Source: an uncultured Clostridia bacterium
GTDB taxonomy: Bacteria > Bacillota > Clostridia > TANB77 > CAG-508
Direction of reading: 5' to 3'
Assembly (NCBI GenBank): GCA_963931085.1
Contig: OZ006973.1
Span: forward strand, 1,568,053 to 1,632,052
Length of the DNA stretch: 64,000 bases
A program made the position numbers and the translations under genes. Of this stretch, positions 44,794 to 60,881 are shown piece after piece. Position 1 is the first letter of the stretch. Every line of letters starts with the position of its first letter. The notes below the pieces were generated by a model, which was given only the letters and a program-made list of their open reading frames with translations, did no database searches and was not told the DNA's origin.

Positions 44794-44837
44794 ATTATAC
44801 ATTATTTTCTAACTTTTAACAATATTTTATGTAAATT
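44794..44837 (-). promoter_or_regulatory. Sigma-A-type promoter with an upstream TTTACATAAA dyad (giant-A operon)
   Basis: The minus strand reads AATTTACATAAAATATTGTTA, a 17-nt spacer, then TATAAT. The -35 is at 44817-44822 and the -10 at 44794-44799. Confidence 0.6.
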
Positions 44838-44846
44838 AATTAGTGC

Positions 44847-44879
44847 AAAAAAAAAAAAGACACTTTATAAAAGTGTCTT
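44847..44879 (-). terminator. Intrinsic terminator of tuf
   Basis: The stem is aagacactt (44857-44865) / aagtgtctt (44871-44879). A T-run of at least 10 follows on the minus strand. Confidence 0.8.
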
Positions 44880-44900
44880 TTCTCTATTTTAAAGAATAAA

Positions 44901-46103
44901 TTATTCTTTGATTTCTGAAACGATACCAGAACCTACTGTTCTACCACCTTCACGAATAGCGAATCTTAATCCTTTTTCGATAGCGATTGGAGTAATTAAT
45001 TCGATATCCATTGTTACGTTATCTCCTGGCATAACCATTTCTGTTCCTGCAGGTAATTCGATAACACCTGTAACGTCAGTTGTTCTGAAATAGAATTGTG
45101 GTCTATATCCGTTAAAGAATGGAGTATGTCTTCCACCTTCTTCTTTAGTTAAGATATAAACTTCAGCTTTGAATTTTGTATGTGGGTGTATTGTTCCTGG
45201 TTTTGCTAAAACTTGACCTCTTTCGATTTCGTTTCTTTGAACGCCTCTTAATAATACACCTATATTATCACCAGCTTCAGCTTGGTCTAATAATTTTCTG
45301 AACATTTCTACACCAGTAATAACTGTTTTTGAAGCTTGTGGTTTTAAACCAACGATTTCAACTTCATCAGAAACTTTAACAACTCCTCTTTCTACTCTAC
45401 CTGTTGCAACAGTTCCTCTACCTGTGATAGAGAATACGTCTTCAACTGGCATTAAGAATGGTTGGTCTGTTGGTCTGTCTGGTGTTGGGATGTAGCTGTC
45501 TACTGCATCCATTAATTCTTTCATTGGAGCATATACAGGATCGTTAGGATCTGTTGATGTGCTCTCTAATACTTGTAATGAAGATCCTTTGATAATTGGA
45601 ATCTCGTCACCTGGGAAGTCATAAGCAGATAATAAGTCTCTAACTTCCATTTCAACTAATTCTAATAATTCTGGATCATCAACCATATCGCATTTATTTA
45701 AGTAAACTACGATATATTTAACACCAACTTGTCTAGCAAGTAAGATGTGCTCTCTTGTTTGTGGCATTGGTCCATCAGCAGCTGAAACTACTAATATAGC
45801 ACCATCCATTTGAGCAGCACCAGTGATCATGTTTTTAACATAGTCAGCATGTCCTGGGCAGTCAACGTGAGCATAATGTCTCTTGTCTGTTTCATATTCA
45901 ACGTGAGCTGTATTAATTGTTATACCTCTTGCTTTTTCTTCTGGAGCTCCATCGATTTGATCGTAAGCTTCAAATTTAGCTTTTCCTAATAAGCTTAAGT
46001 ATTTTGTAATAGCAGCTGTTGTTGTTGTTTTTCCATGGTCAACGTGACCAATTGTACCAATATTTACGTGTGGTTTTGTTCTTTCAAATTTAGCTTTTGC
46101 CAT
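44901..46103 (-). CDS. tuf: Elongation factor Tu
   Basis: 400 aa with GHVDHGKTT and DCPGHADY. Confidence 0.98.
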
Positions 46104-58276: not shown

Positions 58277-58292
58277 TTTTCACCTCTACAAA

Positions 58293-60806
58293 TTATTTAA
58301 CTTCTTCTTTATCTGCTTCTCTACTATCATTCTTTCCTTTACTTGAATCTCTATGTGTATTTGCTCTTGCTTTCTCTTCTGGCATTAAGTAACTTGCATC
58401 TTTAGCAAGCATATCTGAATCATGTACTATTATCTCTGCAAATATATCACTTGTAGTTAACTTTGAGTCAGGTTTTATAATAATACCTCTTGCTTTTGCC
58501 ATTTCTACAATCGTCTTTTCAAGTTCTGCTTTTTGATCAGTTACACCTTCTCTTTCTATTTTTTGTTTAAGAACTTTTTTAGCTCTTACTGCCATATCTA
58601 AATCCATTTTACTATATATATCTGAAGGTATACCTTTTACATATCCTAATTTATCATAATCCATTGATAAATGTGAATTAGCTATATCTTCATTAACACT
58701 TCTTACAGTCTCTGGTTTTAAGCTCTTTGAAGGCATTACTACATCACCTTTAGATTTTCCTTGAGCCACTTTTGCTAGATTTTTTATTTCACTCTTTCTA
58801 TCATCTGATAAATATTTAGAATCAATAGCATCAATAGTTGTAAGATCATATCCAATACTTAAACCTGGTAATGATTCACCTTTTCTTGCAGATTCTACAT
58901 ATCTATCTGCAATTCCTTGATATTTTTTTACACCTTCAAGAGCGACTAAAGCTTTATATACAGTTGGGTCTACTCTTTTTTCTTCTTCTGCTGATAATTT
59001 AAATCCTTTTAACACATCAGTAGATACAGGATCAATATTTTTTATAACTATATCACCATATCTAATTGGAGAATCAAATTCTTTGCCTGTTTTTAATGCA
59101 TATTGTCCATTTACAAATGCGATAGAAACCTTTTTCTCATTTAAAACTTTTGGTAAAACTTGTGTAGCATCTGTATCTTTTGTATCTTTATCGCTCTCTT
59201 TTTTCTTCTCTGATTTTGGTAAAAATTTAACTTCTGGACCATCTAATCTTTTAAATAAATTTGGTGGAACTAATTCTTTAAACTTTTTCTTTCCAGTTAC
59301 AACATCTTTAATATTATAAGCTGCATTAACTAATGCTGAAATTAATCCGACACCTAAATATTTAATGCTTTCCCATAATGATTTTTTCTTACCTGTATCA
59401 TTATCTTCTTTATCAGTACTTGCTTCTTCTTTTTCCTTCTTAATTTTTTCTTTTGTTGCTAATCCTTCTCTGTCATATTGCTTTGCAAAACCTTTTATTT
59501 CACTATATGTTCCTTTATCTAAATTATTTTTTCTTGATAATAAATATTTCAATTCGATTGGCATTGAATCTAAATCTTTTTCCATAACAGCATGAACAAA
59601 TTCATTTGCATAATTTGTCTTATGTCCTTTATCATAATCAGATAAAAGTCCATAAACTACAGGATCAATATAATTATATAAGTCTTCTTTTTCTAATCCT
59701 GGATTATCTTTTTGCATTATTTCGTAAATTTTATCCTCTTCAGCTTTAGCAAAAACATCATCTGGATTAATATTAGATAAAACCTTATCACCTTCATATA
59801 AAAAATATCTTCCTGCTTTTGCATCGAAAACAACTTTTAATTTACCAGATGTACCATCTTTTTCACCATTGTCTTTTTCTTCAGATGATAAACCTAACTC
59901 CTTCATCTTTTCATCAACTTGTTTCATTAAATCTTCATACTCTTTTCTGAATTCAGGACTTAAGTTATCTAATTCGGCTTTCTTTAAAATGCCATAGTCT
60001 TTCTTTATTCTTACTAATATATCTTTAAAATCTGCATCATAATTAATATCTATTTTTTCTTTTTTATCTCTAGAATCTTTAAGTGTTTCTTCAATTTTTT
60101 TAGAAACTTCTTTTAAATCGTTTAATAAATTTGCTGTAGAAATTATAAAAACTTTAACTGTTAAATTATCTTTTCCTTCTGTTTGAGCTTTTCTTAAATA
60201 TTCTTCTCTTACTTTTGATAATGTGCTATCTGCATCTTTCATAAACTTTAAATCTTGCTCTAACTTTTTTCTATACTCTTCTAATTCTGGGGAATCTTGA
60301 CTTGTCTCTTCGTCTTTAGACTTTCCGTCTTCTTCATCTTTTCCGTCTTTTTCTTTTGTAGAATCGTCTTTTGAACCAGTTTTTGAATCTTCTTCTTGAG
60401 TTTCTTCTTGTTCCTTTCCTGATTCTTTACTTGATACTGTTTCTTCTTCAATACTGCTATCTCTTTCCGGATTTTCAATAGAAATTTCAACTGCATCAAT
60501 TATAGGATAAATTGCATCTTTTATTTCTTGAGAAACTTCTCCAGAATTTTCGTTTACTAATCCTTCTAATGAAGCTATAAAATTTCTTTTTTCTTCTTCT
60601 GTTGCATTTCCACCTATTGAATAAGAACCATCATTTAAAAGTCTTAAATCGATTCCATTACTTAAATTCTTTGTATACACAACTTGATTTCCCATATCTT
60701 CTATGCCATCTCTTGAAGAATATATAGGACCTCTTTCATACATTTGTCCAATTTCATTTATTGCATTTTCAATTTCATTTAATAGATTTCTTAGGTCTTC
60801 GTTCAT
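58293..60806 (-). CDS. Giant orphan protein C (about 837 aa), Glu/Lys/Asp-rich with one central hydrophobic segment. It ends 16 nt upstream of trmFO.
   Basis: The ORF track starts at a TTG at 60833. I prefer the ATG at 60806 (MNEDLRN), which is preceded by AGGGGG and is consistent with the -10 at 60839-60844. There is no signal peptide. The hydrophobic segment is LWESIKYLGVGLISALVNAAYNI. Confidence 0.75.
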   Translation of the reverse strand: MNEDLRNLLNEIENAINEIGQMYERGPIYSSRDGIEDMGNQVVYTKNLSNGIDLRLLNDGSYSIGGNATEEEKRNFIASLEGLVNENSGEVSQEIKDAIYPIIDAVEISIENPERDSSIEEETVSSKESGKEQEETQEEDSKTGSKDDSTKEKDGKDEEDGKSKDEETSQDSPELEEYRKKLEQDLKFMKDADSTLSKVREEYLRKAQTEGKDNLTVKVFIISTANLLNDLKEVSKKIEETLKDSRDKKEKIDINYDADFKDILVRIKKDYGILKKAELDNLSPEFRKEYEDLMKQVDEKMKELGLSSEEKDNGEKDGTSGKLKVVFDAKAGRYFLYEGDKVLSNINPDDVFAKAEEDKIYEIMQKDNPGLEKEDLYNYIDPVVYGLLSDYDKGHKTNYANEFVHAVMEKDLDSMPIELKYLLSRKNNLDKGTYSEIKGFAKQYDREGLATKEKIKKEKEEASTDKEDNDTGKKKSLWESIKYLGVGLISALVNAAYNIKDVVTGKKKFKELVPPNLFKRLDGPEVKFLPKSEKKKESDKDTKDTDATQVLPKVLNEKKVSIAFVNGQYALKTGKEFDSPIRYGDIVIKNIDPVSTDVLKGFKLSAEEEKRVDPTVYKALVALEGVKKYQGIADRYVESARKGESLPGLSIGYDLTTIDAIDSKYLSDDRKSEIKNLAKVAQGKSKGDVVMPSKSLKPETVRSVNEDIANSHLSMDYDKLGYVKGIPSDIYSKMDLDMAVRAKKVLKQKIEREGVTDQKAELEKTIVEMAKARGIIIKPDSKLTTSDIFAEIIVHDSDMLAKDASYLMPEEKARANTHRDSSKGKNDSREADKEEVK

Positions 60807-60838
60807 ATTTTTCCCCCTATTTTTATAATTCAAGCAAT

Positions 60839-60881
60839 ATTATATCATGTATCTATAACCTTTTCAATATTTATGTTAACT
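60839..60881 (-). promoter_or_regulatory. Sigma-A-type promoter with an upstream dyad (giant-C/trmFO operon)
   Basis: The minus strand reads AGTTAACATAAATATTGAAA, a 17-nt spacer, then TGaTATAAT. The -35 is at 60862-60867 and the -10 at 60839-60844. Confidence 0.65.

Follow-up and report, generated by a model that had tools for sequence, protein, structure and literature searches.

A conserved box beside the -35 element at three giant-gene promoters of an uncultured Clostridia bacterium

Introduction

A 64,000-nucleotide (nt) stretch of the genome of an uncultured Clostridia bacterium (GTDB lineage TANB77; CAG-508; assembly GCA_963931085.1, contig OZ006973.1, positions 1,568,053 to 1,632,052), hereafter the window, contains three operons with very large orphan genes, denoted here giants A, B and C. 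A preliminary description of this DNA noted that the promoters of these operons are nearly identical, with a short dyad abutting the -35 element, and suggested that the three loci form one regulon. What, then, is this element: a chance resemblance, the operator of a dedicated regulator, or a component of the promoters themselves? Comparison of orthologous loci, other bacterial genomes and phage contigs reveals a conserved box, TTWACATAA(A), adjoining the -35 hexamer at all three promoters, which we tentatively interpret as an upstream recognition element of a class of strong promoters.

Three sigma-A promoters with a common box

The three promoter sequences and their positions proved to be exact as first described (Table 1). 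Promoters B and C have the form TTGAAA-N17-TGnTATAAT, with an extended -10 element, and both are preceded by AGTT(T/A)ACATAAATA. Promoter A is TTGTTA-N17-TATAAT behind AATTTACATAAAATA, with one more base between the box and the -35 than in B and C; it lies directly behind the tuf terminator (44855-44881), and its core ends 26 nt before the ATG of the first gene of the operon, which encodes a protein of 211 amino acids (aa). By the sigma-A (sigma-70-type) criteria, B and C match at 11/12 positions plus TGn, and A at 10/12; the -10 elements are located 26-36 nt before the ATG, and GGAGG-type ribosome-binding sites (RBSs) are present. Judged by these features, all three sites are genuine sigma-A (sigma-70-type) promoters, and the canonical core elements indicate that the sigma-A holoenzyme would be the polymerase acting at A, B and C.

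The box spans about -48 to -38, and its centre, near -43 in B and C and near -44 in A, is close to the position near -42 originally given, next to the -35. The identity of B and C at 19 of 20 positions was also reproduced, and the run of identical consecutive bases shared by these two promoters is real, although it consists of 16 rather than 15 bases (ACATAAATATTGAAAA). As to the dyad ATTTA-CA-TAAAT, only A has it in perfect form; B matches at 4/5 and C at 3/5 positions. For AT-rich DNA, this is a weak symmetry, probably an incidental one.

Additional sigma-A-like promoters lie ~55 bp upstream of the box promoters of B and C and are kept across species (Table 1). Given these tandem promoters, the box at B and C would also be located inside the 5' leader of the upstream transcripts.

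Conservation of the box at orthologous loci

Orthologues of the window genes were fetched via protein similarity, not via the motif. The gene order C-trmFO-B is retained in three related loci, L001, L004 and L005, in which giant B is 87%, 45% and 37% identical (best aligned segment), and TrmFO 91%, 82% and 80% identical, respectively. At locus B, the block AAAGTTTACATAAATATTGA is invariant in all 4 species, and TGnTATAAT follows 17 nt after the -35 in each of them (alignment A1). The 20-column invariant run that covers the box and the start of the -35 is the longest in the intergenic alignment; the spacers and most of the remaining intergenic sequence have diverged. At locus C, L001 and L004 carry AGTTWACATAAATATTGAAAA-N17-TATAAT, the same as the window (alignment A2). 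In L005, GAGTTTACATAAA (GTTTACATAAA) is kept but TTTACA itself is the -35, 17 nt before TGgTAAAAT; the C box is thus conserved in three species, with a shifted copy in the fourth. Both the -35 and the -10 are invariant in alignments A1 and A2. Furthermore, in the B and C sets, conservation extends through the -35: this hexamer is TTGAAA or TTGATA in every case, and TTGACA does not occur.

At locus A, the variant TTTACATAA-W-ATATTGT is present in the window and in L263 and L264, and a remnant, TTTACATAA, in L126. The promoter reads ATTTACATAATATATTGTTT-N17-TATAAT in L263 (giant A 81% identical, synteny tuf-A-plsX) and ATTTACATAATATATTGTGT-N18-TATAAT in L264 (69% identical). In the closest relative, L126 (93% identical), two genes are inserted behind tuf, and TTTACATAAT and TATAAT are retained, spaced 2 nt closer and with a poor -35. 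The box is absent in more distant giant A orthologues, and a metagenome search for additional orthologues of giant B yielded 5 distant, shorter B-like genes, all without the box. Within each orthologue group, the spacing between the box and the -35 is fixed. To judge from these alignments, the box is under selection, and each promoter has its own conserved version.

Could the similarity among the three promoters reflect common ancestry only, with a single promoter cassette copied by duplication or recombination and kept because it is strong, so that the box has no common reader? Promoters B and C, 4 kb apart and nearly identical in the 20-mer plus the -10, look compatible with such an origin. 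However, A, B and C have unrelated spacers, 5' leaders and flanks, and the giants show no mutual similarity in pairwise BLASTP, that is, they are not paralogues. Moreover, it is the box rather than the whole promoter that is invariant in orthologues with proteins 37-45% identical, and this box is also found at unrelated promoters of other genera and of phages (see below). A box that stays conserved while genes, spacers and leaders are unrelated points to a common reader rather than to mere shared descent. Thus, we consider ancestry alone to be quite improbable, and the box likely has a shared reader.

Chance and specificity within the window

The evidence for the box from the window itself is suggestive; the comparative evidence is decisive. 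When both strands (128 kb) were searched for the 20-mer with up to 3 mismatches, only B and C were found, compared to an expectation of 0.18, and none of 100 shuffles gave two or more matches. The 10-mer TTWACATAAA occurs exactly three times in the window, each time as the A, B or C box, but ~2.8 copies are expected anywhere; hence it is the placement of the 10-mer, not its number, that is enriched. Five of the six TTWACATAA 9-mers in the window are intergenic and in gene orientation. The 16-nt run shared by B and C barely exceeds the 15-mers common to other pairs of AT-rich upstream regions, which are pure A/T runs at unrelated positions. Box A alone is a loose, non-significant match to the B/C 17-mer (matches with 3 errors number ~17 per shuffled window), so the support for this copy comes from its register and its conservation in orthologues.

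Several of these figures are as expected if the box were a chance resemblance in 26% GC DNA, with TTWACA being a -35-like hexamer and TAAA an AT-rich filler, in particular the 10-mer count and the 15-mers shared by AT-rich upstream regions. Against this possibility, three of the three copies are in register with a promoter, and the conservation across species at each locus largely refutes it.

We then took the best sigma-A match upstream of each of the ~30 window genes that have an intergenic gap. The box adjoins the -35 in 3 of these ~30 predicted promoters, namely, A, B and C only. As the preliminary description had it, the plsX and rpsL promoters lack the box, and so do ~25 other predicted promoters of the window. 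Promoters B and C reach the top consensus score of 12.5, tied with the promoter upstream of the gene at 31508-31927.

An additional copy of TTTACATAA is located between the divergent pth(-rne/rng) and GT2-glycosyltransferase genes (Table 1). Relative to the pth -35, from which 3 nt separate it, this copy reads inverted; the GT2 -35 is 16 nt away. It is kept in L267 (Pth 82% identical) and absent in L268 (73%); its membership in the set is doubtful. Orientation independence of the box was considered and rejected, the inverted pth copy being retained just in a close relative. In 53 kb from relatives, no further copy of the adjacent type was found. Other copies in close relatives, with 1 nt between the box and TTG, were detected at L004:3104 and L265:6305, the former, from the same genus, preceding a small orphan. 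Overall, copies of the box are few in this genus, and those known lie mostly at orphan operons.

The box in other bacterial genomes

A collection of species-representative genomes was scanned with the pattern TTTACATAAA-N0/1-TATTG-N20-TATAAT. The scan returned at least 119 stretches, mostly from low-GC gut metagenome-assembled genomes (MAGs) labelled 'uncultured Clostridia/Clostridium', with two in each of several genomes; this count is incomplete, as known sites in CALXET01 and CANOSM01, two of the three related genomes with such sites, are absent from the matches listed. Among the matches listed, the spacing of the A type (79 cases) outnumbers that of B and C (32 cases), and the first downstream genes are mixed, including rpsB, rpsF, rsmA, genes for a proton pyrophosphatase and a helicase, and many small and large orphans. 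Outside the window, the box has the same orientation and is located 1-7 nt upstream of the -35 of near-consensus promoters. Two observations agree with a chance origin: a rough estimate of the number expected by chance (a few tens, by our own arithmetic) is within an order of magnitude of the at least 119 stretches, and the 10-mer is not over-represented outside the selected sites of the other-genus loci (11 copies vs 15.8 for permutations).

In L231 and L244, which represent more distant genera and where TrmFO is 72-73% identical, a box promoter lies directly behind trmFO, in the 'slot' that giant B occupies in the window. The slot in these loci harbours a highly charged coiled-coil or repeat protein (L231 ~3135-4976 and L244 ~1-771, both minus strand). 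The same box promoter precedes a similar charged protein in L216 (~3240-5345, minus strand), with a convergent Gate gene and no trmFO match. In sequence, these proteins are all unlike giant B, and the box promoter is common to them. Slot and promoter type persist where the gene does not.

Among the matches listed, there is also a family of 12 secreted proteins, each longer than 900 aa, behind the box promoter (L138, L143, L155, L158, L168, L172, L182, L189, L198, L199, L200 and L229). These loci have in common the box promoter, a conserved leader, TGTAATGTAG ... CCGTAG, and a signal-peptide protein longer than 900 aa; plsX is located ~1.8 kb from the box promoter in four of the 12, those where plsX was found. 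For this leader, Rfam searches of five of the 12 loci gave no match, and those of box-downstream leaders from 18 loci returned nothing. An apparent enrichment of signal peptides downstream of the box (33% vs 22%) was dismissed because it is due to one family. Another of the Clostridia MAG loci, L223, contains an OLE RNA (5173-5728; Rfam RF01071, 328 bits) that is unrelated to the box.

The box in phage contigs

When the viral collection was scanned, the true box was matched 7, 13 and 11 times with gaps of 0-1, 2-3 and 4-5 nt to the -35, whereas composition-matched control 10-mers gave 1, 2 and 2 matches at gaps 0-1, and 7 and 3 at gaps 2-5. The box is thus enriched 4-6 fold over controls in phage contigs, including contigs of 36-43% GC. 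In one group of large phage contigs, the box is part of a tandem, TTTACA-N5-TTTACATAAA: in 7 of 29 phage promoters, a further TTHACA starts exactly 11 nt before the start of the box, and no other distance was seen. Both the enrichment and the exact 11-nt phasing run counter to chance which, together with the conservation described above, leaves a fortuitous resemblance very improbable.

A stereotyped phage promoter, (G)TTTACATAAAC-TTTACATAAA-N3/4-TATTGACA-N17-TATAAT followed by a purine-rich RBS, was observed in viral contigs of ~40% GC (L272, L282, L283, L288, L289, L271, L280 and L290). Five of these loci come from contigs of 120-180 kb, and a single contig can hold several copies of the promoter.

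Bacillus PhoP boxes are direct repeats of TT(A/T/C)ACA with a spacer of 5 +/- 2 nt, so TTWACA might be a half-site of a response regulator of the OmpR/PhoB family, with the -35 hexamer as the promoter-proximal half-site. The hexamer equals the PhoP half-site consensus, and hexamer pairs can be written for the window promoters (TTWACA-N6-TTGAAA in B and C, TTTACA-N7-TTGTTA in A) and, as exact TTTACA-N5-TTTACA, for the 7 of 29 phage promoters. The conservation, however, exceeds the hexamer, TAAA being kept as well, and the -35 hexamers match TTHACA at only 4/6 positions, so that the window contains one good hexamer with the -35 as an imperfect second repeat at N6/N7, and the exact N5 tandem is confined to phages. 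Nor do the B and C orthologues have a conserved second half-site upstream. Furthermore, Pho-activated promoters normally lack a good -35, and ribosomal protein genes are unlikely Pho targets. Taken together, these points make a PhoP-type half-site unlikely. At promoter B of the window, a second half-site of the WalR or PhoP type can be seen, but neither kind is conserved in L004 or L005, and both were discarded.

Comparison with known promoter elements and regulator sites

The UP element of Escherichia coli rrnB P1, with the consensus NNAAAWWTWTTTTNNNAAANNN at -59 to -38, comprises two subsites, each bound by one C-terminal domain of the RNA polymerase alpha subunit (alpha-CTD); such elements are typically found at the strongest promoters and at phage early promoters. 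The box resembles an UP element in that it lies directly upstream of the -35 at a subset of promoters, tolerates small shifts, and is either single, like the proximal subsite, or double with ~11 bp between copies, as in the phage tandems. It differs in being 9-10 nt long with an invariant C (and a G in B and C) and in its poor match to A/T tracts. By eye, the B box matches NNAAAWWTWTTTTNNNAAANNN poorly in its native register and at 10/14 positions after a shift of ~4 nt.

In Lactococcus, a '-44 box', AGTT(T)ATTC, abuts the -35 of rRNA, tRNA and synthetic strong promoters (AGTTTATTCTTGACA); its reader is not known. The string AGTTTATTCTTGACA occurs in 9 papers, including promoter-engineering studies. 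The Lactococcus element is, like ours, a short specific box starting with AGTTT upstream of the -35, accompanied by a TGn extended -10 in a low-GC Gram-positive bacterium. There, however, AGTTT is located 9 nt before TTG, compared to 14 nt here, the sequence that follows differs, and we have no evidence of homology. The Bacillus '-44 element', AGCA, is read by alpha-CTD together with a small protein that does not itself bind DNA, Spx, and marks a subset of sigma-A promoters of functionally diverse genes. The likeness consists in a few specific bases near -44 that mark a sigma-A promoter subset, and the difference is in these bases, AGCA there and ACAT here.

With its centre near -42/-43 and its place next to the -35, the box could also be compared to the site of a class II activator (CRP at -41.5) or to an operator overlapping the -35. 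The preliminary description took the position as that of class II activators or of repressors overlapping the -35. A class II activator site does not hold: the distance to the -35 is 2 or 3 nt here and 1-7 nt elsewhere, the dyad is weak, the -35 and -10 are already near consensus and need no activation, and no cognate factor is known.

Promoters of the TcdR-family (group 5) sigma factors have a -35 of TTTACA and a -10 of GTTATA (PMC4031146). This is the same hexamer, likewise found upstream of large clostridial genes, and window C has GTTATA 14 nt after TTAACA, so the box could be the -35 of a sigma factor of the TcdR/BotR/UviA type, which acts at clostridial toxin and bacteriocin genes, with the giants as toxin-like cargo. 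But neither B nor A, nor the C orthologues L001 and L004, have a conserved -10-like element at 14-18 nt behind TTWACA; conservation is seen in TTGAAA-N17-TGnTATAAT, the canonical sigma-A pair that follows the box. We regard this explanation as extremely improbable. An overlapping second promoter with TTWACA as its -35 was rejected more generally, as the B, C and A sets have no conserved -10 at 16-18 nt downstream. At two other loci, the C orthologue of L005 and L265, TTWACA is the -35 itself.

Additional candidate identities failed as well. The CodY box is a 15-nt palindrome, AATTTTCWGAAAATT, and codY adjoins trmFO in many Firmicutes. Our element is similarly AT-rich and ~15 nt long, with by-eye matches of 12/15 for A and 10/15 for B, levels that are common in 26% GC DNA; the central TCWGA is replaced by a conserved ACATA, and the box is not a single-base palindrome. 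By-eye comparison gave no fit to the motifs of TcdR-type sigma, sigma-E/K/H/D/54, Spo0A, CodY, TnrA/GlnR, WalR, LytTR, NrdR, Fur/PerR or ArgR, to the DnaA box or to the IHF site. A palindrome linking the box to the -35, TTTNCA-N7-TGNAAA, fits B, C and window A but fails in L263, L264 and the wider set, where the -35 hexamers include TTGACA and TTGCAA. In the literature searched, the 10-mer was not found in any relevant context. By these comparisons, the box is a promoter-proximal upstream element of a familiar kind; in function it would come nearest to the UP, Lactococcus -44 and Spx elements, but by its sequence it is not a member of any of these classes.

Promoter class or regulon?

Starting from the observed sequence, register, orthologue conservation, distribution and enrichment over controls, we infer both a positive action of the box and the identity of its reader. 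The reading that we favour, with somewhat less than even confidence, is that the box serves a class of strong promoters as an upstream recognition element with a positive effect. Functionally UP-like, the box would help recruit RNA polymerase, and its direct reader would be alpha-CTD or region 4 of the sigma factor; alternatively, the reader might be a ubiquitous polymerase-associated protein, as is Spx at -44 in Bacillus. The three operons would then belong to a high-expression promoter class. Four considerations lead in this direction. First, B and C are top-scoring promoters, so no activator is needed to offset a poor -35. Second, the box lies at varying distances from the -35, although each orthologue group keeps its own, which suggests a flexibly tethered reader rather than a rigid class II activator. 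Third, the set of genes is heterogeneous and varies among lineages, with ribosomal protein and phage promoters included and trmFO behind C, which favours a promoter class. Fourth, the phage tandem, with its 11-bp offset, matches two adjoining binding subsites like those of an UP element.

A number of observations weigh against this interpretation. Seven other well-scoring window promoters, that of rpsL among them, have no box, so the box is not general to strong promoters of this genome. The three copies in 64 kb are far denser than those in 53 kb of relatives or in the 726 kb around the other-genus matches, and this high density looks regulon-like. Outside the window, the association with strong promoters is partly built in because the scan pattern fixed a perfect -10 and TATTG, and the bacterial figure is a lower bound, with the composition-matched controls covering the viral collection. 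Finally, the C is invariant (along with the G in B and C), whereas classical UP elements are pure A/T tracts, and the Estrem UP consensus is poorly matched.

The alternative suggested by these observations is that the box is the operator of one sequence-specific factor, with A, B, C and a few other genes as its regulon. The conservation is base-specific, including the C and the G, over deep orthologues; about 10% of the window promoters have the box and equally good ones do not; and the copies cluster locally at costly, fast-evolving giant orphan operons, with the same-genus copy at L004:3104 preceding a small orphan. The block that extends through the -35 of B and C, where TTGACA never occurs, and the conserved tandem promoters upstream, suggestive of layered control, fit an operator, too. 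Given the near-consensus core promoters, a repressor blocking the -35 and upstream contacts would be a likelier factor than a class II activator. However, the membership of such a regulon is not conserved across genera and would include ribosomal protein genes and phage promoters; the spacing to the -35 varies from 1 to 7 nt, and the dyad is weak; the inverted pth copy is not deeply conserved; trmFO is part of operon C; and no known regulator motif fits. We consider this alternative the less likely of the two, yet a serious competitor.

The original proposal, that the three orphan loci are one regulon, is thus partly supported. An element conserved within the genus, and lost at the more distant A orthologues, is indeed shared by a subset of promoters (3 of ~30 in the window) that drive non-paralogous genes. 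It is not, however, private to these loci: among the at least 119 stretches found elsewhere, it precedes unrelated genes, including those for ribosomal proteins, it precedes phage genes, operon C itself includes trmFO, and B and C each have another conserved promoter farther upstream. Hence, a regulon confined to the three orphan loci is not supported.

A more far-reaching proposal can be put forward, albeit with limited confidence: TTWACATAA(A) may be an undescribed, lineage-wide '-43 box' of uncultured low-GC gut Clostridia and their phages, read by a conserved component of the transcription machinery and, in this genus, wired preferentially to fast-evolving giant orphans in conserved slots, after tuf and around trmFO.

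Genes and other features of the window

The window has a base composition of 26% GC, with nearly all genes on the minus strand, and the related contigs are MAGs of uncultured gut 'Clostridia bacterium', in which spoIIGA-sigE is present. On the minus strand, the order is a Gate-family gene (on the opposite strand), giant C, trmFO, giant B and small genes, then rpsL-rpsG-fusA-tuf, the 211-aa protein, giant A, and plsX onward. Searches of giants A, B and C against Pfam, NCBIfam and PDB sequences detected the transglutaminase core in A and nothing else, none of the homologues of the giant A operon (P0001-P0012) carries a name, and Rfam gave zero matches across the window.

Table 1. Positions of the promoters, boxes and genes discussed (window coordinates)
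Feature	Position	Strand	Description
Operon A	39241..44767	-	211-aa gene + giant A
211-aa gene	44132-44767	-	leucine-rich-repeat-like by eye; no Pfam match
Giant A	39241-44106	-	1621 aa; transglutaminase-core domain
Promoter A	44837-44794	-	AATTTACATAAAATATTGTTA-N17-TATAAT
Box A	44826..44835	-	TTTACATAAA; 3 nt (ATA) upstream of -35
Core promoter A	44794..44822	-	-35 TTGTTA 44822-44817, 17-nt spacer, -10 TATAAT 44799-44794
Operon B	49799..56531	-	giant B, then small genes
Giant B	51000-56531	-	1843 aa; no family match
Small gene in operon B	50668-50982	-	weak DUF1292 match, E = 0.0086, below Pfam cut-off
Promoter B	56610-56568	-	AGTTTACATAAATATTGAAA-N17-TATAAT
Box B	56597..56610	-	AGTTTACATAAATA; 10-mer 56608-56599, 2 nt (TA) upstream of -35
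Core promoter B	56568..56596	-	-35 TTGAAA 56596-56591, 17-nt spacer, TGg + TATAAT 56573-56568
Second sigma-A-like promoter, B	56630..56659	-	TTGTTA-N18-TATAAA with TGa; conserved blocks in alignment A1
Third sigma-A-like promoter, B	56678-56650	-	TTGAAA-N17-TAAAAT
Operon C	56972..60806	-	giant C, then trmFO
Giant C	58293-60806	-	837 aa from ATG; no family match
trmFO	56972-58276	-	housekeeping; in operon C, 16 nt downstream of giant C
Promoter C	60881-60839	-	AGTTAACATAAATATTGAAA-N17-TATAAT
Box C	60868..60881	-	AGTTAACATAAATA; 10-mer 60879-60870, 2 nt upstream of -35
Core promoter C	60839..60867	-	-35 TTGAAA 60867-60862, 17-nt spacer, TGa + TATAAT 60844-60839
Second sigma-A-like promoter, C	60907..60936	-	TTTACT-N18-TATAAT; -10 block GTATAATA invariant in alignment A2
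Extra box copy	3173..3181	+	TTTACATAA; between divergent pth(-rne/rng) and GT2-glycosyltransferase genes

Three small genes after giant B (49799-50982, minus strand) look paralogous and share the motif (E/K)YxxIDxxxYKGKKYYF; a terminator-like hairpin is located among them, at 50241-50265. The orthologues of giants B and C contain species-specific low-complexity linkers, with TEPTVEPT repeats in L004, TPATPTP in L005 and GHGHDDDDD in L001, where the contig stops within the repeat (~13200-13452). In L004, trmFO appears to be broken into two overlapping open reading frames (8510-9824), owing either to a frameshift or to faulty assembly.

The gap between tuf and operon A (window 44768-44900) contains 0, 2 or 4 extra genes in close relatives (L126 3668-5325; L264 914-4404; L263 8982-9303) and looks like a fast-changing insertion hotspot; in these relatives, PlsX is 94-97% identical, but the 211-aa protein merely 55-64%. 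A conserved hairpin, TATACGCTAG ... CTAGCGTATA, with 10 bp in its stem, is located in the 5' leader of rpsL (window ~49453-49494, minus strand; L004 ~15318-15350), behind the promoter and ahead of the RBS. It matches no Rfam family and may be a ribosomal protein leader.

Implications

The present evidence does not reveal a new kind of regulatory system; what has emerged, in an uncultured lineage, is a promoter element that is conserved and, apparently, has not been described before. To our knowledge, the promoter architecture of uncultured gut Clostridia is essentially uncharted, and a conserved, specific box beside the -35 would improve the prediction of promoters and expression in MAGs. The box would also offer a portable strong-promoter part for clostridial engineering, and the 20-mer would give a handle for fishing out its reader. 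For the biology of these bacteria, the box flags three very large, fast-evolving, family-less proteins as probably highly expressed, a prediction by which these giants become candidate major components of cell structure or of the surface.

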